Counted from the stretch's first letter, positions 159 to 11,680 are shown. The stretch: DNA of 14,526 bases from a virus (IMGVR_UViG_2778261256_000010:1-14526), one strand, 5' to 3'. A program made the numbers and translations. Notes: generated by a model not told the origin, from the sequence alone.

Positions 159-386
159 TACTTTATCTCCCTTTTCTGCAGCTAGATCAATCCACTTCTT
201 GGCCTCAACTACATCCTTATCAAAACCATTGATACCATCAAAATAATTTGTCCCTAACTCACTTTGTGCTGCGGTATCCCCTGCGTTAGCGGCTTCTATC
301 AGCGTTTGTTTATTGTCTGCGTTAACGAATCCAGAGCTAAAAAGCAAAGTTAATGCCAGCAACGATGAAGATTTTATGAATTTCAT
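114..386 (-). pseudogene. Sel1-repeat secreted protein, 3'-truncated by IS10 (native part 159-386; 114-158 is read-through into IS10)
   Basis: Start at the second Met of the 114..431 ORF (MKFIKSSSLLALTLLFSSGFVNA, a signal-peptide-like N-terminus). One Sel1-like repeat (AQSELGTNYFDGINGFDKDVVEAKKWIDLAAEKGD) breaks off mid-repeat exactly at the IS10 end (158/159); the last 14 codons are IS10-derived. Confidence 0.6.
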
Positions 387-618
387 ATTTTTTGTTCTGT
401 TGATATAGGATGAACAGTTTAGACGCGGCAAGCGCCAAGTGTGCGAAAAGGGTACTTAAATTTAGTTTATCTGTCAGCTTTGTTAATATAGTTTATAGAT
501 GGTAAAGTTAACAGAAAACTAATCACAGCTAGAAATAATGACTTATTTAATTATTGTGACGCTGCACAAGATATACTTAAATTATAACAACGATAAATAT
601 AATTAAAGGGAAATCAAA

Positions 619-1032
619 ATGAGCAAAAATAAGCTGATTTTAACAGGAGCTTTATTGTCGTTATTTGCTTTAGTGGGGTGTAAACCCACCGACGAGAAGG
701 CTATTTCTCTGGGTCAACAGGCAATTGCGGATGATATGAAAGACCCCTCGTCTGTAATGTTTAGAAAAGATAAGTTCGTCAGGACTGATCATAATGACGG
801 GAGAGTTACCGGTTTTGTGTGCGGTGAATTAAACGCAAAAAATGGATTTGGTGCATACGTGGGCTACCACTCATATGTTGTCGAACTTGAAATGAAATCA
901 AAGGGCATGTTTTCTAAAGGTGTGGAATACAAAATCCTCATGAAGTCATTGGCACCAAACGAGCCTCATGATTTACAGCGTTATAAGCAGGTCTACAGAG
1001 AGATGTGCAACAGTGAGGCTGTAGCTCATTAA
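619..1032 (+). CDS. small lipoprotein, unknown function
   Basis: 137-aa ORF with RBS AAAGGGA 6 nt upstream; N-terminus MSKNKLILTGALLSLFALVGC has a signal peptide and lipobox (LVGC). Confidence 0.7.
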   Translation: MSKNKLILTGALLSLFALVGCKPTDEKAISLGQQAIADDMKDPSSVMFRKDKFVRTDHNDGRVTGFVCGELNAKNGFGAYVGYHSYVVELEMKSKGMFSKGVEYKILMKSLAPNEPHDLQRYKQVYREMCNSEAVAH

Positions 1033-1095
1033 TGTGAATGCCGGGCTTATCGTCTGCCTGGCTTCTTCGTATAGCAGACTATTGCGCCCGATATA

Positions 1096-1115
1096 ATAAG
1101 TAGATACTTACTTAT
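1096..1115 (+). repeat. 20-bp motif ATAAGTA-NN-TACTTACTTAT, copy 1 (identical arms to the copy at 4689-4708; near-copy at 11336-11355)
   Basis: ataagtagatacttacttat, 42 bp upstream of the 1157 start codon and immediately downstream of a perfect TATAAT (1092-1097). Confidence 0.55.
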
Positions 1116-1156
1116 TTTTCTGAAAGAATACTTTCATCTGTTAGTCAGGAGTTGCT

Positions 1157-1951
1157 ATGAAAGAAGAATTTCAGAAGTTAGTCTGCGACATCATCGACAA
1201 ATCCGGCGTAGAAATTGATACAGAAGAGCGCCAGAAGATTATCGACGAGGCGATCCAAACTGCACTGGAGCATATCGCCACGTCCGTGAGCACCGTACCT
1301 CTTTCGGAAGGCTCGAAATACATGCAGGTCTGGGTTCGTTTTGGAGAGTCCCCGGAGTTGCCAGGTGTTAAGCAGAAACGCGCGGCACTTGTGGCGTTCT
1401 CTCGCGAGATGAAAGACGCAACGGTCGAAGTGAGTACCGGTGCATGGTACGACGGCCGCATTGTCTACACCAATCAGACTGTGTGCGATAAAGGTGAACG
1501 GTTTGAGGATATTGTCGACGCAACTCTTCGCACGCTCAAAGTCAGAGCTGGTGTGGCGGATGATCCGTCCATCGCGGCGTTCCTGAGTATTGTCGAACAG
1601 TCTGAAGTTACCGAGCGCGTAACAGATCTGACAACTCCACCTGGTTTGCTGGAATTGGTGGTCAGTGGCGATATCAAAAAAGCCGTTGAGCGCATTCGTG
1701 AGGTGGAATACGGCATTATCTGCGATATGTGCCGCAGCGACTTAGACCTGGTGCGCATCATTGTCGACGCGGGTCAGGCATGTGACGGAGTACTCGCCAG
1801 TTTTGCAGGGCAAGTGGCTCGTCTGGCCAACGAATTACCCATGATTAAACAAGAAGCCAAATCCTACGCCGTTCATCGTACCAACGATTTACTGGACCCA
1901 TACCGGTTCGAAGCTGCTCAGGACAAAATGACTGGCTGGGCGACCTGGTAA
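1157..1951 (+). CDS. hypothetical protein (264 aa), no recognisable motif
   Basis: Long ORF with strong RBS AGGAG (1147-1151) 5 nt upstream, followed by its own terminator. Antisense ORFs 1171..1461 and 1474..1761 are taken as shadows. Confidence 0.7.
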   Translation: MKEEFQKLVCDIIDKSGVEIDTEERQKIIDEAIQTALEHIATSVSTVPLSEGSKYMQVWVRFGESPELPGVKQKRAALVAFSREMKDATVEVSTGAWYDGRIVYTNQTVCDKGERFEDIVDATLRTLKVRAGVADDPSIAAFLSIVEQSEVTERVTDLTTPPGLLELVVSGDIKKAVERIREVEYGIICDMCRSDLDLVRIIVDAGQACDGVLASFAGQVARLANELPMIKQEAKSYAVHRTNDLLDPYRFEAAQDKMTGWATW

Positions 1952-1969
1952 GCCTCGATAAAACATTTA

Positions 1970-1990
1970 GCCCCCTCGTGGGGCTTCTTT
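1970..1990 (+). terminator. Rho-independent terminator
   Basis: GCCCC-ctcgt-GGGGC stem-loop followed by TTCTTT, 19 bp after the stop of the 264-aa gene. Confidence 0.6.
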
Positions 1991-2032
1991 AAACTGCGAT
2001 TAATAAGTAAGTACAAGATTACGGTTAGAAGC

Positions 2033-2509
2033 ATGTCCACAAGAACAGATTTGTCGAAAATCCCGTCTATCTCCGGAAACAACGGTTATTCGCTGCGCTG
2101 CCCGGAAGTGAAGCTCAACGGCCATGAGGCTCATTGCAGCTATACAGTCTGCCAACACACGATCCTCGCCTATAAAGAAAAACGTCTCCCGGCTACATCG
2201 TTCCAGTCCTGCGCTGCGGCTATTGCTGCTGGTAAATGTCAGGCACTGAAAATGATGGTCGAAGAGATCCGCAAAGACGAACAGCTCTACTTCATCGATA
2301 TGTCTTCACTTATCAAAGAAGTGGAAGAGCAAAACGACCATGCCAGAACGCTCCCCCGGAAGCGAAACACCGCGACAATTGACAGTCTTATTCATCGCAC
2401 GAAGAAAACAGAACCTGCTAAATCCGAAACCAATCCCACCGATTCACTGGCGCCGATCACTGACGTGTACGCGGCACTCATTGAAGAAGCAACCAAAGAA
2501 AACACATGA
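2033..2509 (+). CDS. hypothetical Cys-containing protein (158 aa)
   Basis: ORF directly upstream of and co-oriented with the ligase; five Cys in the N-terminal half (C23, C35, C40, C60, C69) suggest a possible metal-binding module. No family recognised. Weak RBS. Confidence 0.55.
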   Translation: MSTRTDLSKIPSISGNNGYSLRCPEVKLNGHEAHCSYTVCQHTILAYKEKRLPATSFQSCAAAIAAGKCQALKMMVEEIRKDEQLYFIDMSSLIKEVEEQNDHARTLPRKRNTATIDSLIHRTKKTEPAKSETNPTDSLAPITDVYAALIEEATKENT

Positions 2510-2543
2510 AAACTCCCGAGCGACCGATGGAGGTTAAACACTA

Positions 2544-3866
2544 ATGGAAAAACTGATCGCCCTAAAGCACAAGCTGGATGCTATTAAAACGATGGGAACC
2601 AACGCCAAGAAAGAGGCGCTGGCCAATCTGGATGAATTTGAACAGAGCATGGTCTCGCTAATGCTCAATCCATTCATTCGATTCGGTGTGAAGAAGTACA
2701 AAGTGGCCGAGCCACTCGATACTTCCGTACCCAGCGACCAGAAGGTAGTAGATCTGCTGGAGAAGCTGGCAGCGCGCGAACTGACCGGGAACATCGCTAT
2801 TGCTGCTGTCGAATCACTCGTTGCCTCGATGTGCGCTGACGGGCAGGACGTGTTTCGTCGCTTCCTGCTGAAAGATCCGAAAGCCGGTGTCGGCATCAGC
2901 CTGTGCAACAAGGTGTTCGAAAACCCAATTCCGAAGTTTGAGGTACAGCTGGCGTCTCCGTACAAGGAGAAAGGCGACAAATACCCATTTAAACCAAATC
3001 CAAAGGCCAAGTGGCCAATGATCGGCAGTCTCAAACTCGATGGTCTCCGGGTTATCTGCGAAGTCATCGTGGACGAGGGTGAGGTCAATTTCCTGACGCG
3101 CACCGGCAATCCGATTACGTCACTCGATCACCTTAAACCAGCCATGCTGGAGCGGGGCAGACTCTCCGGCTTCAATCACATCTTCTTCGATGGAGAGGGC
3201 ACTGCAGGTACATTCAACCAGTCAGTGTCGGCGCTTCGTAAGAAGAACGTGAAAGCCATTGGTGCCGTTTACCACATTTTCGATTTCTTCTTACCGGAGT
3301 GGCGTGCTCAAGCAAAAAGCAAAGAGTACCTGAAGACCGGTATGAAGCTGAAAGAGCGCCTGGCTATGCTGGTGGCGTTGTTCCGCAACACTTGCGTGGA
3401 AGATTATGCGCAAGATATCCACCTTCATCCGTTCTACATCATCCATAGCCACGAAGATTTCATCGAACGTTTCATGAAGCGACTGGACGAGAATGAAGAG
3501 GGAGAGATGGACAAAGATCCGGATTCAGTTTACGAGTTCAAACGTACCCGCAGCTGGTGGAAGCTGAAAGACGAGGATTCAGAAGACGGTGAAATCATCG
3601 ACTTCGAGCCTGGCGATCCGGATTCTGGATTTGCGCATACGCTAGGCAAGATAGTGATTCGTCTGGAGAACGGCGTCATCGTTCGTGCCAGCGGTATCAA
3701 GCATAAATACCTGGATGAAATCTGGAACAATCAGGAGAAGTATCGTGGACGCATCGTTGAGGTTCACTGCCATGAGAAAACGCCAGATGGTAGCTTGCGT
3801 CATCCACGTCTGAAGTGGCCTAAATGTCTTCGAGATACCGAAGATCGTATTGGAGATAAAGAATGA
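2544..3866 (+). CDS. ATP-dependent DNA ligase, phage T4 gp30-like
   Basis: RBS GGAGG upstream. Nucleotidyltransferase motif I KLDGLR (K164, 3033-3050), FFDGEG, WWKLK, and the C-terminal LRHPRLKWPKCLRD (motif VI-like). The N-terminal domain aligns by eye with T4 ligase (ARELTGNIAIAAVESL...ISLCNKVF...LASPYKEKGDK versus T4 TRKLTGNAAIEELTGY...VSIANKVW...LASSYDEKGINK). Confidence 0.85.
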   Translation: MEKLIALKHKLDAIKTMGTNAKKEALANLDEFEQSMVSLMLNPFIRFGVKKYKVAEPLDTSVPSDQKVVDLLEKLAARELTGNIAIAAVESLVASMCADGQDVFRRFLLKDPKAGVGISLCNKVFENPIPKFEVQLASPYKEKGDKYPFKPNPKAKWPMIGSLKLDGLRVICEVIVDEGEVNFLTRTGNPITSLDHLKPAMLERGRLSGFNHIFFDGEGTAGTFNQSVSALRKKNVKAIGAVYHIFDFFLPEWRAQAKSKEYLKTGMKLKERLAMLVALFRNTCVEDYAQDIHLHPFYIIHSHEDFIERFMKRLDENEEGEMDKDPDSVYEFKRTRSWWKLKDEDSEDGEIIDFEPGDPDSGFAHTLGKIVIRLENGVIVRASGIKHKYLDEIWNNQEKYRGRIVEVHCHEKTPDGSLRHPRLKWPKCLRDTEDRIGDKE

Positions 3867-4042
3867 TGCTCGGCTGGATGTTTGTATTTTTAGTCGTCGG
3901 CATTGTTATCGGAAGTCTGGTTATGTCCAGCTGTATCCACGATTACGTAAAAGCCGGTGTCATGCAAAGGCGAGGTCGTATTTATCGCATAGTAGATATC
4001 ACGGACACACTGAAGGAGATTAAGGATGATCATGTTAAGTAA
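3863..4042 (+). CDS. small membrane protein (59 aa), not in the supplied ORF track
   Basis: ATG at 3863 overlaps the ligase stop (ATGA); RBS GGAGA 7 nt upstream; MMLGWMFVFLVVGIVIGSLVMSS is a predicted TM helix; stop TAA 4040-4042. Translated by hand. Confidence 0.45.
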   Translation: MMLGWMFVFLVVGIVIGSLVMSSCIHDYVKAGVMQRRGRIYRIVDITDTLKEIKDDHVK

Positions 4043-4238
4043 ACGAGAGAAGGAAACCCTGCGTGAAATTAGCAAGTGGAAGGAGTTCTACGCCAACTGG
4101 AAGCCGAAGACCAGAGCCAAACTGGAGCGCATGAATCTTGTCGCCAACGTTTCTCCAAAGGGATGTATTGAGAACTATCAACTGACTGAAAAAGGTTATT
4201 TGTTGTTGCAGCAATTGACTGAGGCGGGGGCGCACTGA
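4026..4238 (+). CDS. small hypothetical protein (70 aa)
   Basis: Strong RBS AAGGAG (4013-4018) 7 nt upstream of ATG 4026; soluble, charged sequence; stop overlaps the next start. Confidence 0.55.
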   Translation: MIMLSKREKETLREISKWKEFYANWKPKTRAKLERMNLVANVSPKGCIENYQLTEKGYLLLQQLTEAGAH

Positions 4239-4390
4239 TGATTCCATACATCATTTTATCTTTTACTGGTGGCGTGGGCCTCGGCCTCGCAATCTGCCGC
4301 GCCCTGGTCCAGCAGGAACTGCAAACCAAAACACTTCGTGTCGGTAAGCGTGTGTATCGGGTTGTTCACGAGACGGGAGTGCGAAAATGA
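4238..4390 (+). CDS. small membrane protein (50 aa), not in the supplied ORF track
   Basis: ATG 4238 overlaps the upstream stop (TGATG); MIPYIILSFTGGVGLGLAICRAL is a TM helix; stop TGA 4388-4390 overlaps the ATG of the next gene (4387). Confidence 0.4.
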   Translation: MIPYIILSFTGGVGLGLAICRALVQQELQTKTLRVGKRVYRVVHETGVRK

Positions 4391-4692
4391 GCAATTTGAC
4401 TTCCTTCGACTGGTGGCTGGCAACCTACCTTGTGGCGGCCGGCTTCGGATTTGCCTTTTACATTGGTCAGTTAATCGTAAAGCTACTGCTGATCAGATTC
4501 GCCAGCCATAAACGCATAGACGACGGTCTGTGGCGTCTGGGGTCCCTGTTAGAGACGCATTACGGCGAACTCAAGGAAAACGAAACTATCACTATTCAAG
4601 CGAAGCGTTTTACCGCCATCATCACGAGAACTCCGGAACAAAAGGGGAGCCTGATCAAAAAGATAGCAACTAAACGCATCACAGATAGATAA
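4387..4692 (+). CDS. small membrane protein (101 aa)
   Basis: N-terminal TM segment WWLATYLVAAGFGFAFYIGQLIV followed by a charged C-terminal domain; translationally coupled to the preceding small gene. Confidence 0.6.
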   Translation: MSNLTSFDWWLATYLVAAGFGFAFYIGQLIVKLLLIRFASHKRIDDGLWRLGSLLETHYGELKENETITIQAKRFTAIITRTPEQKGSLIKKIATKRITDR

Positions 4693-4708
4693 GTATTTAC
4701 TTACTTAT
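4689..4708 (+). repeat. 20-bp motif ATAAGTA-NN-TACTTACTTAT, copy 2
   Basis: ataagtatttacttacttat, overlapping the stop codon of the 101-aa gene; followed by CTAATAT...TATAAGAT, which is shared with copy 3. Confidence 0.55.
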
Positions 4709-4884
4709 CTAATATGTATAAGATCACTTTGTTTTCGTTGAGATGCGACTGTTTGAACGTTAAATATAACTGCAAACGAAGATGCATACCTGGCAGTAGC
4801 CTAAGAAGCCAAACACCAGCGAGGTCAGTTTCCAGCCTCGTCACCAAAATGGGACACACTGAGCGAGTGTGATTGCAGAACGCA

Positions 4885-4916
4885 GAATAGGGCATATTGC
4901 ACCATCCATGCCCTAT
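4885..4916. other. perfect 10-bp-stem hairpin (AATAGGGCAT / ATGCCCTATT, 12-nt loop)
   Basis: Direct reading; no U-tract after it, so not a classical terminator. Confidence 0.5.
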
Positions 4917-5071
4917 TCAATGAAGTAACAGAATGGGCGGTTGGTTTCATCATTCCATTCACCCATCCCGGTTTCAGCTGACCGTCCATTCTGTTACGTC
5001 ATTTCCATTACTTATGTCGTTTATACTTGGGTTAAAAGCGGCGACGTAACCCGGCTGACTTGGTTAGTCAG

Positions 5072-5189
5072 CACATAACGTTGAGATCACTGATTTTTCT
5101 TAAAATCATACAGGCGATTCCACATAGCTGTAGCGACTGATCAATATGTTGGGTTGAACATTAATCGGTTCAGTGATCTCAACGTTGTG
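5072..5189. repeat. 17-bp perfect inverted repeat (5076-5092 / 5169-5185; 20 of 21 if extended) flanking a 76-bp spacer
   Basis: AACGTTGAGATCACTGA and its exact reverse complement TCAGTGATCTCAACGTT; three GATC sites within the element. Confidence 0.55.
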
Positions 5190-5435
5190 AAAGCAGGATT
5201 AATTAACCCTCTAGTGAAAACATTGTTGCCTTTATTGCCCCTGACTTCACAACATGTATGATTCCATACATCCAATAAGATCGAAGAATCTAACGGCAAT
5301 CAACCACCGAGAAAGATTCCAGATCTTCGCTCATATGAGCGAGCCACATACCTCGTCTGGCACTAACGTAAAGTGCAAGTTGCGGGAAAGTTTCTGGCTG
5401 CCTGGTTGTCCATAAGCTAGTACCGCCGCGAAAAT

Positions 5436-5510
5436 GATGGTGTAGCTCAGTGGTAGAGCGGTTGACTGTTAATCAACTGGTCGGTGGTTCGAGTCCACCC
5501 ACCATCGCCA
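5436..5510 (+). tRNA. tRNA-Asn (anticodon GTT at 5468-5470)
   Basis: Folded by hand into a full cloverleaf: 7-bp acceptor stem GATGGTG/CACCATC, D-arm GCTC-AGTGGTA-GAGC, anticodon stem GTTGA/TCAAC with loop CTGTTAA, T-arm GGTGG-TTCGAGT-CCACC, discriminator G, encoded CCA. Confidence 0.9.
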
Positions 5511-5663
5511 ACATAGCGCTGAACGGTTTGGATTCGCCACCACCGTCCGAACGAAAGACTCCGCAAATGTCGCCAGACCGTTCAGCGCTGTGATAGACAC
5601 GGCAGACGTTTTTTAACCATTGCTTCTAAGCATCGTAGCAACACTTTTTTCAGCGCAAAATCC

Positions 5664-5685
5664 AAAGGGGCTTCGGCCCCTTTTT
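5664..5685 (+). terminator. Rho-independent terminator downstream of the tRNA
   Basis: AAAGGGGC-TTCG-GCCCCTTTTT: GC-rich stem, tetraloop, T-run. Confidence 0.7.
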
Positions 5686-5764
5686 GCTATCAAGTCGCAT
5701 ATGCAACCAACTTTTTTTAGCTTATAGTTAAGTTCAGTAGTAGAATGCTACGCTTCGTCGAGAA

Positions 5765-6313
5765 ATGACGATTATGGAGTCTATCGTGAAATTTAAAATC
5801 CAGCATTTGCAGGCAGCAGTGGCACTGGTTCTTGCCAGTATCCAGCCGCAACCCAAAGCGGTTGCGTGTCAGCCTACGATTGTAGAACGGGTTTATGAGA
5901 TGGGCGCTAGAGTCAACAAAACCGACATCAGTGATCTTACAGCTGCTCTCAATGAATTGGCTAAAGAACTGCGTTCAAGCCGCGCTGAACTTGCTCATTA
6001 TGCTGACACTGACTTCTTTGCTGCTATCAAAGTAGCGGAAGAAATTAAGAATCAAACTATTCATGTAGCCGGTATCGCAGAATCTTTTGTTTTGATGTTA
6101 CCTGAAAAAGACGTCATCATGTCTTACGACAAAAACACTGTTGAGTTTGCGTTTTTTAAGGCTATTAAAATGGTCAGTATTGCGACCAAAAACTATCTCA
6201 ATCTGATTGATCAGATTACACGCACTTCTGTAGTGCGTGACTCTGGTGTCAACCTTTTAGCCATGAACCATCTATTAGAGACTGGCAACAAGGCTGCGGC
6301 TAAATGGCATTAA
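5765..6313 (+). CDS. putative antitoxin-like partner of the YafO-family toxin (182 aa; true start uncertain)
   Basis: ORF ends 10 nt inside the toxin gene (6304-6313 overlap), the usual toxin-antitoxin coupling. No recognisable Phd/YefM or RHH sequence signature; much larger than E. coli YafN (~97 aa). Confidence 0.45.
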   Translation: MTIMESIVKFKIQHLQAAVALVLASIQPQPKAVACQPTIVERVYEMGARVNKTDISDLTAALNELAKELRSSRAELAHYADTDFFAAIKVAEEIKNQTIHVAGIAESFVLMLPEKDVIMSYDKNTVEFAFFKAIKMVSIATKNYLNLIDQITRTSVVRDSGVNLLAMNHLLETGNKAAAKWH

Positions 6314-6720
6314 CGGCTGAATACAGTCAAGTTACGTGGGATGATTTTTTTCAGCCCACTTTTGTCGTTTACCCTGACCTAGAAAGTCAGCTCAAATCCG
6401 AGTTCATTACTTACAAATCAACTGGCGCACCATCTAATCTTCTTGGACGAGATGCGCCATTTGACTTCCCGCCGTTCGCCGTTGATGCTAATGTCCAGCA
6501 TATTCACGTCAATTTGCATTTCCAGCTTACCTGGAACGCAAGGCAAGAGAACTACAACCGAACCTCAAACCACTATCTCGTTTATACCGAGCACATGTGG
6601 GATAGCGGGCGTTTTTTGCTGATGGGGCTAGTCACTCCAGCTCACGATCGTATGCCAGCAAGAGATACTAGGTTGCTCAGCTACTTCGCTGAAGTCGCAG
6701 AAGGTTTCCATTCTAGCTGA
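6304..6720 (+). CDS. yafO: YafO-family type II toxin (ribosome-dependent mRNA interferase family)
   Basis: Aligned by eye to my recollection of E. coli YafO: FITYKSTGAPSNLLGRDAPFD vs FISYKRDGVLPDIFGRDALYD; VQHIHV vs VAHIHL; RTSNHYLVY vs RTNDEAHLVY; FLLMGLVTPAHDRMPARD vs WLLIAILKPEPHKLARD. Confidence 0.7.
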   Translation: MALTAEYSQVTWDDFFQPTFVVYPDLESQLKSEFITYKSTGAPSNLLGRDAPFDFPPFAVDANVQHIHVNLHFQLTWNARQENYNRTSNHYLVYTEHMWDSGRFLLMGLVTPAHDRMPARDTRLLSYFAEVAEGFHSS

Positions 6721-6887
6721 ACTTTAGCGATCGTCATCTTCTTCATCATTCTTTTTCTTCTAACAAATCATTCTCATCAATCTGGCTCAGATGGCATTCC
6801 AAAGTTGGCGTTATTAGGCGCTTTTTACTATTTAGCGTTTAAGATGGTTTGTCTACATAATTTATTCAGAATTTACGTAAGCTATAT

Positions 6888-6922
6888 AAATGATTCCATA
6901 CTTGTAAGGTATGGAATCATTT
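6888..6922. promoter_or_regulatory. perfect 14-bp inverted repeat AAATGATTCCATAC-N7-GTATGGAATCATTT (candidate operator)
   Basis: Exact palindrome about 100 bp upstream of the recombinase ORF; shares the core TGATTCCATAC with the 15-bp direct repeats at 4238 and 5258. Confidence 0.5.
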
Positions 6923-6973
6923 TCAAAAACAGTCTATTTTACTGTTGATCATACAAAAACTGAGGCCTAACAC

Positions 6974-6992
6974 ACTGTTTATAAATACAGTA
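6974..6992. promoter_or_regulatory. LexA (SOS) box-like site, CTGT-N8-ACAG
   Basis: ACTGTTTATAAATACAGTA against the gammaproteobacterial consensus TACTGTATATATATACAGTA; AT-rich spacer; about 30 bp upstream of ATG 7021. It is the only CTGT-N8-ACAG I found in the window. Confidence 0.5.
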
Positions 6993-7020
6993 AAAACAGG
7001 CTTCACTCAGTGAGTGGACT

Positions 7021-8124
7021 ATGAAAAACACTTTTGATAAAGCACGCGCAGCAGAAAACACCTCTAGAGAAGCCATCGAGTATCTCGAACGCGCTTCCGG
7101 TTTGTCAGCAGTGTCGACCACCAATTTCGACGGTGACATGTCGTTTTCTTCCGCATTCATGTTATTCACTCGCTTATCTTTGCTGATAACGAGACGTCGA
7201 CCTGAAATAGCTGTTCATTGTATTTTGATACATGTAATGCCGCATATCTGTGAAGTAAAAGTAAGTGACATTAGTAGGGTTTTAGTCAACCAGCTGGTGA
7301 ACCCATTAATACTTGAGGGCAAGATCGTCCAGGGCAGACGTGTGTTCTCGCTGATGAAGCAGTTTCTCAGTTGGTGTGCATTTCAGGGCTTAATTGATAC
7401 ATCCCCATTGAACGATATGTCGCTTAACAGAGTAGCCGGTGGCGCGAAGCCCACGCCGCGCGAGCGCAAACTGACCGACGCAGAGGTCTGGGTCTTTTGG
7501 AATGTATGGGACTACTTCAACGTATGTGAGGGTACAAAGTGGGCGGCCAGATTATGCCTTGTAGCGGCCAGACGACCAGATGAAGTGCTCCGAGCTAAAA
7601 GATCAGAATTCAACCTCGAATATAATTTATGGAATCAAGGAACGAGGAATAAATCGGCTCGCCAGCACTCGTTACCATTAAGCCCGCTAATGCGCAAATG
7701 TGTTGAGGAGCTGATCAAATACGGAAAAGGCAGCCAGTGGCTTGTTCCTTCAAACAAGAAACAGGGTGAGGATGTGCCAATGTCTAAGGTGGCCATATCA
7801 CAGGCGTTGAGAAGGATTTTAGAACGTCCAGAGTTGATGGAGCTTGAGCCATTTACCCCCCGAGATTTGCGTCGTACTGCGCGTAGTTACTTCCCCGCGT
7901 TAGGCATAAGTCAGGAGGTATCCCGCAAAATTATGAACCACAGTCTTGAGGGGATAGATCGAGTATACGATCGACACGATTATATAGACGAGATGCGAGA
8001 CGCCTTAAACAGTTTTTCGGCGTACATCGCATCAATCGTAGAGAAACAGGATTTAGAGGAGATAGATCATAAGTTCAAGGGAGATCGACTCGCTACTGAG
8101 CTAATCCGTGTAAATTTCTCATAG
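7021..8124 (+). CDS. tyrosine recombinase/integrase, P4-like catalytic core; arm-binding N-terminal domain absent, first ~60 aa unrelated
   Basis: Core-binding-like segment from about aa 70 (HVMPHICEVKVSDISRVL...VFSLMKQFLSWCAFQGLIDTSPLNDMS); catalytic signatures ARRPDEVL (box I Arg), FTPRDLRRTA (box II, with R where His is usual), NHS, and RVYDRHDY (catalytic Tyr). Confidence 0.65.
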   Translation: MKNTFDKARAAENTSREAIEYLERASGLSAVSTTNFDGDMSFSSAFMLFTRLSLLITRRRPEIAVHCILIHVMPHICEVKVSDISRVLVNQLVNPLILEGKIVQGRRVFSLMKQFLSWCAFQGLIDTSPLNDMSLNRVAGGAKPTPRERKLTDAEVWVFWNVWDYFNVCEGTKWAARLCLVAARRPDEVLRAKRSEFNLEYNLWNQGTRNKSARQHSLPLSPLMRKCVEELIKYGKGSQWLVPSNKKQGEDVPMSKVAISQALRRILERPELMELEPFTPRDLRRTARSYFPALGISQEVSRKIMNHSLEGIDRVYDRHDYIDEMRDALNSFSAYIASIVEKQDLEEIDHKFKGDRLATELIRVNFS

Positions 8125-8517
8125 CGACTTGATTGCCTCAACAACCCGCTCCGACGCACCACGTTGGTCACCGAAACGTCGACGGAAGGCTTCCAGAACT
8201 AGTTTTTCATCTTTAGTCAGAGGGGCTGTGCCTTCGTCGCGAAAAAACGCTAACAGCTCTGGATGACGCTCTTCCAGCACCATTAGCATCAATCGGACCG
8301 AATCGGCATCCAATGCTTTAGCCAACGCTCTGACCTTGTCGATCGGAAGCGGGATTTTGCCGCTCTTGATAAGTGAAAGATTGTTAGGGTTTTTATAGCC
8401 TGCTTCTTTCGCGATGGTCGCCTGGCTTTTCGGAGAAATCGCGATTAAAGCGTCAATGTAAGCAGCGTAGCGACCTACTTTAGCTTCTGTTGTTTCGTTG
8501 GTAGCCATAATTATCAA
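8119..8517 (-). CDS. helix-turn-helix (XRE/Cro-like) transcriptional regulator
   Basis: SQATIAKEAGYKNPNNLSLIKSGKIPLPIDKVRALAKAL is a canonical HTH; convergent with and overlapping the recombinase 3' end by 6 bp. Start may be the second ATG (MATNE...). Confidence 0.65.
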   Translation of the reverse strand: MIIMATNETTEAKVGRYAAYIDALIAISPKSQATIAKEAGYKNPNNLSLIKSGKIPLPIDKVRALAKALDADSVRLMLMVLEERHPELLAFFRDEGTAPLTKDEKLVLEAFRRRFGDQRGASERVVEAIKSL

Positions 8518-8764
8518 CCTGCGTGTTTTGATTTTATTTGGTAAGTGCTTACTGATATTACATCAAAGGTTAGTGTTGTAAAGACTTATCTATTTTTTTA
8601 CGTAGGTTTACTGACCGCAAAAGGCTTCATTAATAGACAACTATCTAAAAAATAACTCATTTAAGAACTTAAAACTAAGTTGTATTTGATATATAAGTAT
8701 TCCGTATTGATACAATAGGTAGTAGTATTGCAAGGCATTTACGTGTTCAGTTGGATGATATGAA

Positions 8765-8977
8765 ATGAAAAAAATAACTTCTAATTTGATCGCCCTTGAG
8801 GTCGGACATACGGTTTCAATTGACGATGATGGGGCAGCAGCCATACTCACTGAACTGCCAACAAAGTCTTTGTTACTTGACATGAAAGACGCAACCGCAT
8901 ACATCTTTGAGCTAAAGGGCAAGTGCTTCACTCTCATCAATACCGGCTGCGGTTCAGTAGCCGTCCGCACAAGTTAA
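8765..8977 (+). CDS. small hypothetical protein (70 aa)
   Basis: RBS-like GGATGA upstream; sits just upstream of the vWA gene; could be spurious (AT-rich surroundings). Confidence 0.35.
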   Translation: MKKITSNLIALEVGHTVSIDDDGAAAILTELPTKSLLLDMKDATAYIFELKGKCFTLINTGCGSVAVRTS

Positions 8978-9002
8978 CACCACCCCTCCCATCCTCTCTA
9001 GC

Positions 9003-9037
9003 GCCTGTACGAACAGATTAGATGCCTGTTCGTACAG
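9003..9037. promoter_or_regulatory. tandem near-palindromic sites GCCTGTACGAACAG / GCCTGTTCGTACAG (candidate operator pair)
   Basis: CTGTACGAACAG (9005-9016) and its exact reverse complement CTGTTCGTACAG (9026-9037), 9-bp spacer, about 55 bp upstream of the preferred start of the vWA gene. Confidence 0.45.
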
Positions 9038-9090
9038 TGATAAATTACGCACATCAGAAAACAAATTGTTTTAACAACAAGGGAATTCTA

Positions 9091-11319
9091 ATGTCCAAAA
9101 AAACCACCAAAGCTGTACTGAAAGAGGTGCAGGATTTTCGCGACTGTGTAAAACGAGTTGTAGCGATGCTTTCAGGTAAACAGATACCTGTTGCAGAACG
9201 AGGCAATGAAGCATATGTCCGCTATAACCGGCGCGGCGAACCAGTGCTGGTAAACATCCCATCTATACCGGACGACGCGTCGCCAACCCTCATGAACGCA
9301 GTGCGTGGTTTTCTCGACCATGAGGTGGCCCATATTCTCTTTACTGAACCGAAAGTCGCAATGCAGATGCGCGAAAGAGGAAAGGCTCCGTCTACGGGGC
9401 TTTGGAATGCGCTGGAAGACGTTTTTATTGAACGCAGAATGGGGCAGGTCTTTAACGGAACCCGGCGTAATTTACTTGCAACACAGAGTCTGGTTATCGA
9501 CAAATACTTCAGGAATAAAGTACCAGAAGCGGTTTTAGCCTGTCACGGAGACCAGCGTGAATTGTTTTTGAAATTCTTCCTTTGCCCGGTCGTCCGCGCC
9601 TGGGATGGACAAAGCCCCTTCATCGATTTTATGGAAGAACACTGGCGCCTTATCGAGAGGCCGGTAGCCTTACTAAAGGAGCATGGTATAGACGTGGCCG
9701 TTCGCAATATGTCGAACACTGAGGATTGCGTGAAGGTCGCTGCTGCTATAGCCCAAATCATGCAGGATATGAAAGACAAGCCAGAGGGCAAATTACCAGA
9801 ACTTAAATCATCTGCCAGAAAGCCGTCGGAGAGCAAAGACGAGTCCGAGGAAACGCCAGAATCAGGTGACGAGCCGTCTCATGGTGACTCTGCATCTAAG
9901 CCTGCCAAAGGCGAAGGCGATGACAAGGAAGAACGAGAAGATGATGCATCAGAAGAGGAAGATTCTGGGGATTCCGATTTGCCTGATTCGTTAGATAAGG
10001 ACTTACCTACACACGTTAAAGATATTAGTGATACAGAAAGTAAATATACAGAAGCAGGCCACGAAGAGTCAGGAGACACCCCAGAATCCGATGCTATCGG
10101 CATGAAATCAAGTGACTCTGACACCGATGGTGATGGCGGTGAGGACTCCGATACTGATCGTGGGGAAACTGAAGAAGACGTCGAAGGCAAAAAAAATAAA
10201 GATGGTGCGGAAGTGCCCAAAGACAGTGAGTCTGGCTTTGTTCCTGCGCCGGATGAAATGACTCTGGAGGAGGCGCTAAAGGCGCTCGACGAGATGGAAG
10301 ACGGAATCGGTGAAATGACCGAAGACGCACTGTCGGCCACCATCAGCAAAGAGCTTATGAGCGTCTCACCTTCTGATTATCGGCCATACGATCGATCATA
10401 CGACTTTATCGGGTTGATTGATGGAGCCGAAGAGCATGTGAAGCGCACCAGAAAGACGTTCGGTGCAATACCAATGCACTCACCAGTCGACCGCTACCGT
10501 ATGGTGCCAGAAGGCAGAAAACTCTTTGAACTGAAAATCGAAAAACATCTGTCTGCAGGCGTTTCTTCGACGCTGGCCAAAGACCTGGAGCGGGCCATCG
10601 CCAGCCGCAACCGAGTTCAGTTTATACCTGGTCAGAGGCGTGGGCGGATACATGGCGCGAGCCTGTATCGTCTGGCAATGAACGACGACCGAGTGTTCCG
10701 CAAGAAGGAAGACCATAGAGCGGTGAACGCGTGTGTCCAGCAAGTCATCGACTTGTCCGGCTCAATGGATGGCGTGAAGATTCAACTGGCCCTAGCCAGT
10801 GCCTATACCATTGCGGATGCTTTAGATCGTATCAATGTCCCCAACATCATCACCGGCTTTACCACGTTCGGTAGCCCAGATTATGAAACCAGGTCGAAGC
10901 GCGGGTTTACACGCTTCGAGGCGCTCATGCTGCCCATTATCAAAAACTGGAATGAGAAAGCAAACTCTCCAGAGATCCGTGCTCGCATGGGATGCGTATG
11001 TGAGACGTTCCCCCTGCTCAATAACGTCGATGGTGAGAGTGTCGCGCAACTGGCTACCCTGTTTGCAGGGCGAATGGAGGACAAAAAGATCATGCTGGTT
11101 ATGAGTGATGGGGAGCCATGTGCTACAGGTAGTGGATTCCATCAGCATTTACGAACCGTCACCAAAGAAATTGAGACCTTGAGCGACATCGAACTGATGG
11201 CTATCGGCATTCTGACCGACGAACCACGGCGTTACTACAAAAATTACGCACTGGTTAACAGTGTTGAAGAGTTAGGGCCGTCAGTCGTCACTGAGTTATC
11301 TCGTATCATTCTTGGGTAA
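9091..11319 (+). CDS. CobT/BchD-like architecture: N-terminal HExxH (zincin-like) module, ~170-180 aa acidic Ser/Asp/Glu-rich linker, C-terminal von Willebrand factor A domain
   Basis: Preferred start ATG 9091 (RBS AAGGGA 6 nt upstream); the track ATG 9022 lies inside the palindrome and lacks an RBS. HEVAH at 9319-9333 with Glu in NALEDVFIERR about 25 aa downstream (gluzincin-like spacing). vWA MIDAS DLSGS (10750-10764), then GFTT and MSDGEP. Confidence 0.75.
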   Translation: MSKKTTKAVLKEVQDFRDCVKRVVAMLSGKQIPVAERGNEAYVRYNRRGEPVLVNIPSIPDDASPTLMNAVRGFLDHEVAHILFTEPKVAMQMRERGKAPSTGLWNALEDVFIERRMGQVFNGTRRNLLATQSLVIDKYFRNKVPEAVLACHGDQRELFLKFFLCPVVRAWDGQSPFIDFMEEHWRLIERPVALLKEHGIDVAVRNMSNTEDCVKVAAAIAQIMQDMKDKPEGKLPELKSSARKPSESKDESEETPESGDEPSHGDSASKPAKGEGDDKEEREDDASEEEDSGDSDLPDSLDKDLPTHVKDISDTESKYTEAGHEESGDTPESDAIGMKSSDSDTDGDGGEDSDTDRGETEEDVEGKKNKDGAEVPKDSESGFVPAPDEMTLEEALKALDEMEDGIGEMTEDALSATISKELMSVSPSDYRPYDRSYDFIGLIDGAEEHVKRTRKTFGAIPMHSPVDRYRMVPEGRKLFELKIEKHLSAGVSSTLAKDLERAIASRNRVQFIPGQRRGRIHGASLYRLAMNDDRVFRKKEDHRAVNACVQQVIDLSGSMDGVKIQLALASAYTIADALDRINVPNIITGFTTFGSPDYETRSKRGFTRFEALMLPIIKNWNEKANSPEIRARMGCVCETFPLLNNVDGESVAQLATLFAGRMEDKKIMLVMSDGEPCATGSGFHQHLRTVTKEIETLSDIELMAIGILTDEPRRYYKNYALVNSVEELGPSVVTELSRIILG

Positions 11320-11335
11320 TAGCTTACCCTTAAAA

Positions 11336-11355
11336 ATAAGTAACTACTTACTATA
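11336..11355 (+). repeat. 20-bp motif, copy 3 (ATAAGTA-AC-TACTTACTATA)
   Basis: 17 bp after the vWA gene stop and about 60 bp upstream of the zinc-finger gene; followed by CTAATAT...TATAAGAT as at copy 2. Confidence 0.5.
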
Positions 11356-11413
11356 CAGCCTAATATATTTCTATAAGATATACCCCACAAACGACAAACA
11401 GTAAGGAAAAAAC

Positions 11414-11680
11414 ATGACCGCTACTGCACTACAGCAAGAAGAACATTTGCCGGAAGCCATCGTCTGCAAGTGGTGTGGCAAATCCTTTCATTACCTGAAA
11501 TCCCATATCTCTATGGGCCGTTGCGAGAATATTCCTGAGTCTGCGAAGGGTCTGGACGTGGACGAAGTGGTGAAGATGTACACCTCTGCGTTTCCAGATG
11601 AACCAACGATCTCTCGCACGGCACTGGCCAAACTCAATGAGAAGGGGTCGTTTGCGGGAGGGGGCGGAATCCTACGCTAA
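11414..11680 (+). pseudogene. Ros/MucR-type zinc-finger mini-protein, 3' end replaced by the Tn3-family inverted repeat (native part 11414-11643)
   Basis: RBS AAGGA 6 nt upstream. IVCKWCGKSFHYLKSHI matches the Ros/MucR zinc-finger IVCLECGGSFKSLKRHL, and SRTALAKLNEKG matches ARSRLAKEMGLG. From codon 78 the ORF is encoded by the transposon IR (GSFAGGGGILR). Confidence 0.5.

Follow-up and report, generated by a model that had tools for sequence, protein, structure and literature searches.

The window analysed here, a 14,526-nucleotide stretch of viral DNA (IMGVR_UViG_2778261256_000010:1-14526), contains repeated copies of a 20-bp motif and is part of an E. coli SSU5-type phage-plasmid. We base this assignment on the 99% identity of bases 159-11644 to many E. 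coli IncFIB 'plasmids', and on the 91% identity to Salmonella phage SSU5 over pieces that make up 61% of 1093-11644. Among phage-plasmids, SSU5-type elements constitute the largest supergroup, to which pHCM2 of Salmonella Typhi and pMT1 of Yersinia pestis belong, and they frequently bear resistance genes (PMC7969092, PMC9600943); no regulator is listed for the group in a recent review (PMC11652158). From left to right, the window carries genes for a 264-amino acid (aa) protein, a 158-aa protein, DNA ligase and four small proteins; then a conserved non-coding stretch, tRNA-Asn, a YafO toxin pair and a tyrosine integrase; and finally a divergent gene for an XRE-type helix-turn-helix (HTH) protein, a 70-aa gene, a vWA/CobT-like gene and the start of a gene for a CobS-like ATPase. 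The motif copies and the promoter elements predicted next to them, followed by the other features with their coordinates, are:

1096-1115: candidate operator copy 1, ATAAGTAGATACTTACTTAT (ATAAGTA-GATACT-TACTTAT, perfect 7-bp inverted arms), upstream of the 264-aa gene
1121-1129, plus strand: extended -10-like element TGAAAGAAT, 6 nt after copy 1
2003-2022: degenerate copy, ATAAGTAAGTAC AAGATTAC, left half perfect and right half decayed (5 mismatches), 10 nt upstream of the 158-aa gene
4689-4708: candidate operator copy 2, ATAAGTATTTACTTACTTAT (ATAAGTA-TTTACT-TACTTAT, perfect 7-bp inverted arms), at the end of the small-gene cassette
4719-4724, plus strand: -10-like TAAGAT within TATAAGAT, 17 bp after TTTACT, promoter score 8.5 of 12.5
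8537-8556: weaker candidate operator copy, TTTGGTAAGTGCTTACTGAT, inner 14 bp as in the consensus, outer triplets different (4 mismatches)
8555-8582, minus strand: predicted sigma-70 promoter of the HTH gene, TTTACA (8582-8577), 16-bp spacer, TAATAT (8560-8555), 9 of 12 matches
9991-10010: intragenic copy, TTAGATAAGGACTTACCTAC, in the acidic linker of the vWA/CobT-like gene (4 mismatches)
11336-11355: candidate operator copy 3, ATAAGTAACTACTTACTATA, with a right arm shorter by one base, in the gap that separates the vWA/CobT gene from the gene for the CobS-like AAA ATPase
11361-11366 (TAATAT) and 11372-11379 (TATAAGAT), plus strand: -10-like elements after copy 3, ahead of the CobS ATG at 11414
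8122-8508, minus strand: XRE-type HTH protein, 129 aa, candidate motif binder
1157: ATG of the 264-aa gene, downstream of copy 1
5436-5510: tRNA-Asn
7021-8124: tyrosine integrase
1-148: IS10 fragment at the left end of the window, 99% identical to IS10 in a phage record
from 11644: Tn3-family transposon at the right end of the window

Copies 1, 2 and 3 are found exactly where an earlier, sequence-only reading of the window had placed them, and all three are intergenic, as it had stated. Their recurrence is not an accident of composition: with the pattern ATAAGTANNTACTTACT and up to 2 mismatches there are 7 matches against 0.01 expected, a number reached by no shuffle, and chance or AT-rich low complexity as the origin of the motif is thereby ruled out. 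Two further copies had escaped that reading, one at the HTH promoter (8537-8556) and one inside the vWA/CobT gene (9991-10010), the latter with orthologues in SSU5 (43661) and pJN2-26 (91932). As for the two degenerate copies that it had proposed, the one at 2003-2022 is real, with orthologues in SSU5 (39087), Cyrano (35607) and pJN2-26 (80738), and the sequence near 8693 holds loose half-site matches only. The fixed orientation ascribed to the motif did not hold up. Each copy also matches the minus strand with 1-2 mismatches, and the two halves carry equal numbers of mismatches genome-wide (left/right relative to gene direction in the four genomes introduced below: 27/29, 21/41, 21/26 and 30/33). 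An oriented motif was therefore discarded: the core is symmetric, and direction appears only in the full promoter context and in a mild upstream A-tract.

Complete relatives were scanned for the motif, namely E. coli pLAO18, phage SSU5, phage-plasmid Cyrano and Klebsiella pJN2-26, and all four share the consensus ATARGTAAGT/ACTTACYTAT, a 20-bp palindrome. Each of these ~105-kb genomes yielded 19-26 matches at no more than 3-4 mismatches, with ~0 expected, corresponding to 21-25 distinct sites. Placement is far from random: 29 of the 32 SSU5 sites (up to 6 mismatches) are intergenic in a genome that is 11.6% non-coding, for which we calculate a binomial probability of about 1e-23. The SSU5 sites precede replication, nucleotide-metabolism, portal, tail-tube, tail-fibre and holin genes at 2-140 nt from the start codon, those of structural and lysis genes at 2-60 nt from the ATG and many at only 2-20 nt. 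The exact 18-mer TAGGTAAGTACTTACCTA has 31 matches among the 2.9 million contigs of IMG/VR, 31 of 31 in contigs that are SSU5-like by alignment. The motif can serve as a sequence signature for such contigs. By inspection it does not fit the LexA box, CTGT-N8-ACAG. Neither the motif strings nor a description of SSU5-group regulation was found in the literature that could be searched.

A palindrome on the transcribed strand just upstream of ribosome-binding sites could in principle act as RNA, in the form of a hairpin that serves as a processing site, 5' stabiliser, weak terminator or translational operator, and the consensus and the variant from Acinetobacter described below do fold, at -6.6 and -7.7 kcal/mol respectively, with a GUAC loop. 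The window copies, however, fold at only -1.6 to -4.2 kcal/mol through AU-rich stems. Across the motif sites, arm positions are without compensatory covariation (positions 4/17 and 1/20, none significant, Fisher p = 0.07-1), G·U-type mismatches being about as frequent as A·C-type ones (53 vs 50, p = 0.84). A terminator scan picked up no motif copy, a GC-rich stem with a U-tract being absent, and an Rfam search gave no family match. We discarded an RNA hairpin or terminator on these grounds and give such a role very little credence. Independent degeneration of the two halves, parity of G·U and A·C mismatches and weak hairpins point instead to a DNA site for a dimeric protein, and very probably to an operator, that is, the site of the element's own DNA-binding protein.

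Next to each of copies 1-3 there is a conserved -10-like element, and comparison with four other lineages indicated that the motif and this adjacent box are conserved, the upstream flank being unalignable or less conserved. Copy 1 is a conserved island in SSU5, Cyrano, pJN2-26 and Moellerella, with an unalignable flank upstream, and the sequence after it (TGnAAGAAT / TGTAATAAT) is kept in four lineages. The element at 1121-1129 predicts a start near 1136, which would put copy 1 at about -40 to -21; as an alternative there is a perfect TATAAT at 1092-1097, which shares 2 nt with the left end of the putative operator. At copy 2, ATAAGTATTTAC is kept in five lineages, the central TTTACT (4696-4701) also serves as a -35-like hexamer, and the predicted promoter is directed into the conserved non-coding region and tRNA-Asn. 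Copy 3 is conserved in SSU5, Cyrano and pJN2-26, and the arrangement CTAATATATTT.TATAAGAT at this copy is conserved in the alignment with relatives. The downstream sequence that copies 2 and 3 had been said to share (CTAATAT...TATAAGAT) is real and is kept in relatives. Judging by the predicted starts, the operator would span roughly -40 to -20 at all three copies.

The relation to promoters is looser when all sites are considered. With its flanks the palindrome grows to AT-n-[20-mer]-n-AT and has TATnAT on either side, and because of this -10-like hexamers alone are symmetric about the motif (48 vs 51). An A-tract is mildly in excess on the upstream side (227 vs 179 of 450), and full sigma-70-like promoters (score of at least 9, -10 at or just after the motif end) are gene-directed at 23 of 90 sites and mirrored at 4. 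The register itself varies: most enterobacterial sites have the motif across the -35 and spacer, whereas the HTH promoter and a Rhizobium phage described below have it behind the -10. At the HTH promoter, and with the alternative TATAAT of copy 1, the -10 runs two bases into the motif, so that the predicted start lies inside it. The suggestion of a regulator-binding site is thus borne out by a motif that is palindromic, specific to this family of elements and overlapping predicted promoters. That of an element-specific promoter as such finds no support, given the variable register and the many copies within 2-20 nt of a start codon. Function in several registers suits a repressor site better than an activator site.

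The same architecture was found well beyond the closest relatives. In a Moellerella phage-plasmid, whose HTH protein is 40% identical, the arms ATARGTA / TACYTAT are kept and the central six bases are relaxed. In a syntenic Acinetobacter phage-plasmid (HTH protein 37-40% identical) the enterobacterial-type motif is not present; in its stead there is a changed palindrome, TCAGTCAGTACTGACTGA, with 26 copies at up to 3 mismatches against 0 expected and 34 at up to 5, which on comparison by eye with the annotation occupy small intergenic gaps that include most structural-gene junctions. The Rhizobium phage RHph_X66, also syntenic (59% GC, HTH protein 31-37% identical), has 38 copies of TAAGTAAGYRCTTACTTA against 0 expected. 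Of these, 11 directly follow a CTAYAW -10-like box (GCGCTATAA-type) in gene direction, with 1 mirrored, and 14 directly precede a Shine-Dalgarno sequence and start codon, with 3 mirrored. Dispersed palindromes are thus a family trait in both gamma- and alpha-proteobacterial hosts, which argues against a host factor as the binder. RHph_X66 also has two kinds of upstream box, GCGCTATAA in the replication/accessory region (e.g. at 20755, 24539 and 38075) and (TTAAG)CTTGCAA ahead of the palindrome before structural genes (e.g. at 79305, 84016 and 100442), and encodes a sigma-70-family protein after CobS (64303-64947), hints of two promoter classes sharing one operator.

These distant elements also bear on the proposal that the copies are recombination or cassette boundaries, in the form of core sites for the adjacent tyrosine integrase (7021-8124). 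Two 7-bp inverted arms around a 6-bp spacer, ATARGTA-N6-TACYTAT, do resemble a tyrosine-recombinase core site, and copy 1 borders a variable stretch, homology beginning at 1056 in most relatives and at 1093 in SSU5. No integrase homologue is detectable, however, in the Acinetobacter or Rhizobium elements with their 26-38 copies; about 25 symmetric sites would scramble the genome, and gene order is alike by eye in the annotated relatives; a deletion in SSU5, described below, ends at repeats unrelated to the motif; and copy 3 lies between two conserved genes. The boundary proposal is thus left without support, and we regard a role as integrase sites as highly improbable.

The XRE-type HTH protein emerges as the leading candidate for the binder. 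It matches PHROG 8, transcriptional regulator, with E = 1.4e-10, and the Pfam families HTH_3/HTH_31 with E = 0.02-0.03, below the cut-off; no sequence relative was found among solved structures (PDB), and a single-sequence AlphaFold model is helical but of low confidence (pLDDT 56). The Cyrano lysogen expresses its homologue, CYRAN_45, which is annotated as a putative lysogeny repressor (PMC9928086). The HTH protein occurs in about 1000 plasmids, and its spread over hosts resembles the one seen for the element's ligase. Apart from SSU5, which lacks it, each of the six motif-bearing genomes compared has a detectable homologue, and no other annotated regulator candidate is so distributed. The other annotated regulators considered, FljA-like SSU5_121, SSU5_116, SSU5_054, Ant, Cra and the 70-aa PHROG 4054 protein, were rejected, none being detectable in all motif-bearing lineages. 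Both hexamers of the predicted HTH promoter are conserved in three lineages. The copy at 8537-8556 takes in the final 2 nt of its -10, with the predicted start inside the copy. Between the HTH gene and the gene divergent from it, conservation is strongest in TGGTAAGTGCTTACYGATATTACA...TTGTAAA, a block that comprises the motif core, the -10 and the -35 (window, Cyrano and pJN2-26). The recognition-helix region reads YKNPNN, YKNANN or YKNPNI in enterobacteria and YSNPNM in Rhizobium, where the motif is shared, and FKRPNV in Acinetobacter, where it is changed. From this co-occurrence we judge it probable that the HTH protein (8122-8508, minus strand) binds the motif. For electrophoretic mobility shift assays the sequence-only reading had named this HTH regulator, a good choice, together with a Ros/MucR-like protein, which is a truncated CobS fragment (see below).

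The absence of the HTH gene from SSU5 can be traced to a defined event. Two 10-bp direct repeats of the form CCGTCCG(A/C)AC, CCGTCCGAAC at 5543-5552 and CCGTCCGCAC at 8961-8970, bracket the toxin pair, the integrase, the HTH gene and the 70-aa gene, and exactly this 3.4-kb segment is deleted in SSU5, which by alignment retains the last codons of the 70-aa gene. SSU5 is thus a derivative that has lost integrase and HTH protein, which accounts for its missing integrase-repressor module. That this loss made SSU5 lytic is our own inference.

Taken together, the findings make a dispersed operator regulon of a phage-plasmid repressor, comparable to that of P1 C1, the explanation we favour with reasonable confidence, its binder, sign of regulation and transcription starts being inferred. 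A dimeric protein encoded by the element would recognise the consensus palindrome, with the strongest contacts in the 7-bp arms. Some 25 intergenic sites would overlap or abut promoters of replication, nucleotide-metabolism, structural and lysis operons and, when occupied, block RNA polymerase by covering either the -35 and spacer or the start site; those in tight gene junctions could serve as roadblocks too. The phage programme would thereby stay silent during plasmid replication. The XRE-type HTH protein, as the most likely binder, would also be autoregulated, the weaker copy at 8537-8556 serving to shut down the promoter of its gene.

Several points weigh against this repressor regulon. Its binding events, transcription starts and effects on expression are predictions from sequence. 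Copies 1-3 reach only 8-8.5 of 12 as sigma-70 promoters, none passing the 9-of-12 consensus scan, and several structural-module sites are followed by GC-rich hairpins and not by promoters. Roughly one intergenic region in four holds a motif copy, so that finding one beside the HTH gene is in itself no great surprise. The Rhizobium HTH protein, only 31-37% identical, goes with nearly the same motif, whereas the Acinetobacter one, of similar identity, goes with a different motif. SSU5, which lacks the HTH gene, retains all of its sites intact, which fits a recent loss of that gene but also a different binder. Finally, there is a second small candidate, the 88-aa PHROG 900 protein (SSU5_130 and its homologues) encoded just upstream of terS. 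It is found in all lineages, SSU5 and the Rhizobium phage among them, and hence matches the distribution of the motif at least as well. It is labelled DNA-binding by the annotators of Cyrano and, in our own reading of its sequence, looks winged-helix-like.

Alternatively, a conserved small protein of the element, for example PHROG 900, could be a positive factor that binds the palindrome as a phage-specific promoter element and recruits or redirects host RNA polymerase to phage genes; the copy at the HTH promoter would then turn the HTH gene off in lytic growth. The presence of PHROG 900 in all seven genomes would explain why SSU5 has kept its sites. Sites ahead of nearly every phage operon, early and late, the lack of a good -35 at many of them, and the mild A-tract excess as a directional flank are in keeping with such a factor. 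Activators, however, normally require a fixed position, and the motif/-10 register is not fixed between sites; where the motif ends 2-20 nt from the ATG, as at many sites, there is no room for a downstream -10; and PHROG 900 has no assigned function, its winged-helix character being a reading of the sequence. We therefore hold a positive factor to be unlikely, if less so than the RNA and integrase explanations.

The repressor regulon admits an extension, which we put forward as a tentative possibility. One palindrome, conserved between Rhizobium phages and enterobacterial phage-plasmids and changed in specificity in Acinetobacter, might be the master switch of the whole ~100-kb element, with the XRE-type HTH protein or PHROG 900 acting at nearly every operon junction as both promoter occluder and elongation roadblock; the 3.4-kb loss of the XRE gene might then have made the lytic biocontrol phage SSU5, and the same switch might operate in Y. 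pestis pMT1 and S. Typhi pHCM2. An operator sequence with one or two candidate binders makes the decision between plasmid life and lysis directly testable.

Known systems offer parallels for such a regulon. In P1, a plasmid-prophage, the single repressor C1 acts at many operators scattered over a ~100-kb genome, its own gene included, which is the regulatory logic and copy number proposed here. The P1 operator, however, is an asymmetric 17-mer, ATTGCTCTAATAAATTT, unlike and unrelated in sequence to the symmetric 20-bp palindrome; C1 is not an XRE protein; and P1 late genes use a separate class of Lpa-dependent promoters, whereas here the same motif stands before early and late genes. Repressors of the lambdoid/434 type are XRE proteins that, as helix-turn-helix dimers, bind palindromic operators overlapping promoter elements, and that autoregulate. 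The palindrome described here likewise overlaps predicted promoter elements and has a copy at the predicted promoter of the candidate repressor, its putative binder, but exists as about 25 dispersed copies and not in clusters at one or two immunity regions. In cluster A mycobacteriophages, ~20-30 stoperators per genome (read by L5 gp71 and Bxb1 gp69) lie in short gaps of early and late operons, and binding to them halts transcription (PMC9283540). The sites in SSU5 and Acinetobacter similarly fall in tiny gene junctions, including those of late genes; stoperators, however, are 13 bp long, asymmetric, read by a monomer and oriented with transcription, in contrast to the symmetric motif. In SPbeta, a large temperate phage, the master repressor MrpR acts through a palindromic element, SPBRE, repeated across the genome (PMC10516654). 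MrpR is, however, recombinase-like and from a phage of Gram-positive hosts, and there is no sequence relation to the motif or the HTH protein. The motif system thus appears to match the known logic of dispersed operators, with a sequence and build unlike those of P1 C1 or stoperator sites.

A second dispersed palindrome, AAACAAnTTGTTT, was found in one copy at 9059-9071 of the window, some 20 nt ahead of the ATG at 9091 with which vWA/CobT probably begins. It has 9-12 exact copies in each of SSU5, pLAO18, Cyrano and pJN2-26 and none in the Moellerella, Acinetobacter and Rhizobium elements, and usually lies between a GATAAT-like box and the Shine-Dalgarno sequence. This distribution is that of SSU5_121, the FljA-like 'repressor of phase-1 flagellin' protein (PF03614), which suggests that AAACAAnTTGTTT may define a separate regulon. 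In Klebsiella pJN2-26, the most over-represented 8-mer is Chi, GCTGGTGG, with 27 copies against about 3 expected from base composition.

The ends of the window are defined by mobile DNA. On the left, 159-1055 aligned in few relatives only, most of them showing homology from 1056 onwards, which marks the region upstream of copy 1 as a variable cargo slot; its 137-aa gene at 619-1032 has, by eye, a lipoprotein-signal-like N-terminus. On the right, the Tn3-family transposon has inserted at 11644 into the gene for the CobS-like AAA ATPase, and the ORF at 11414-11680 joins the initial 77 codons of that gene, 100% identical to SSU5_050, to 11 codons contributed by the transposon end. The 'zinc-finger gene' said to follow copy 3, also called a Ros/MucR-like protein, is this truncated ATPase fragment. 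Between copy 2 and tRNA-Asn, 4709-5435 is non-coding and gave no match in an Rfam search; it is strongly conserved, with TTTGTTTTCGTTGAGACGCGACTGTTTGAACGTTAAATATAACTGCAAACGAAGAT near-identical in four lineages, and may encode a non-coding RNA driven by the copy 2 promoter.

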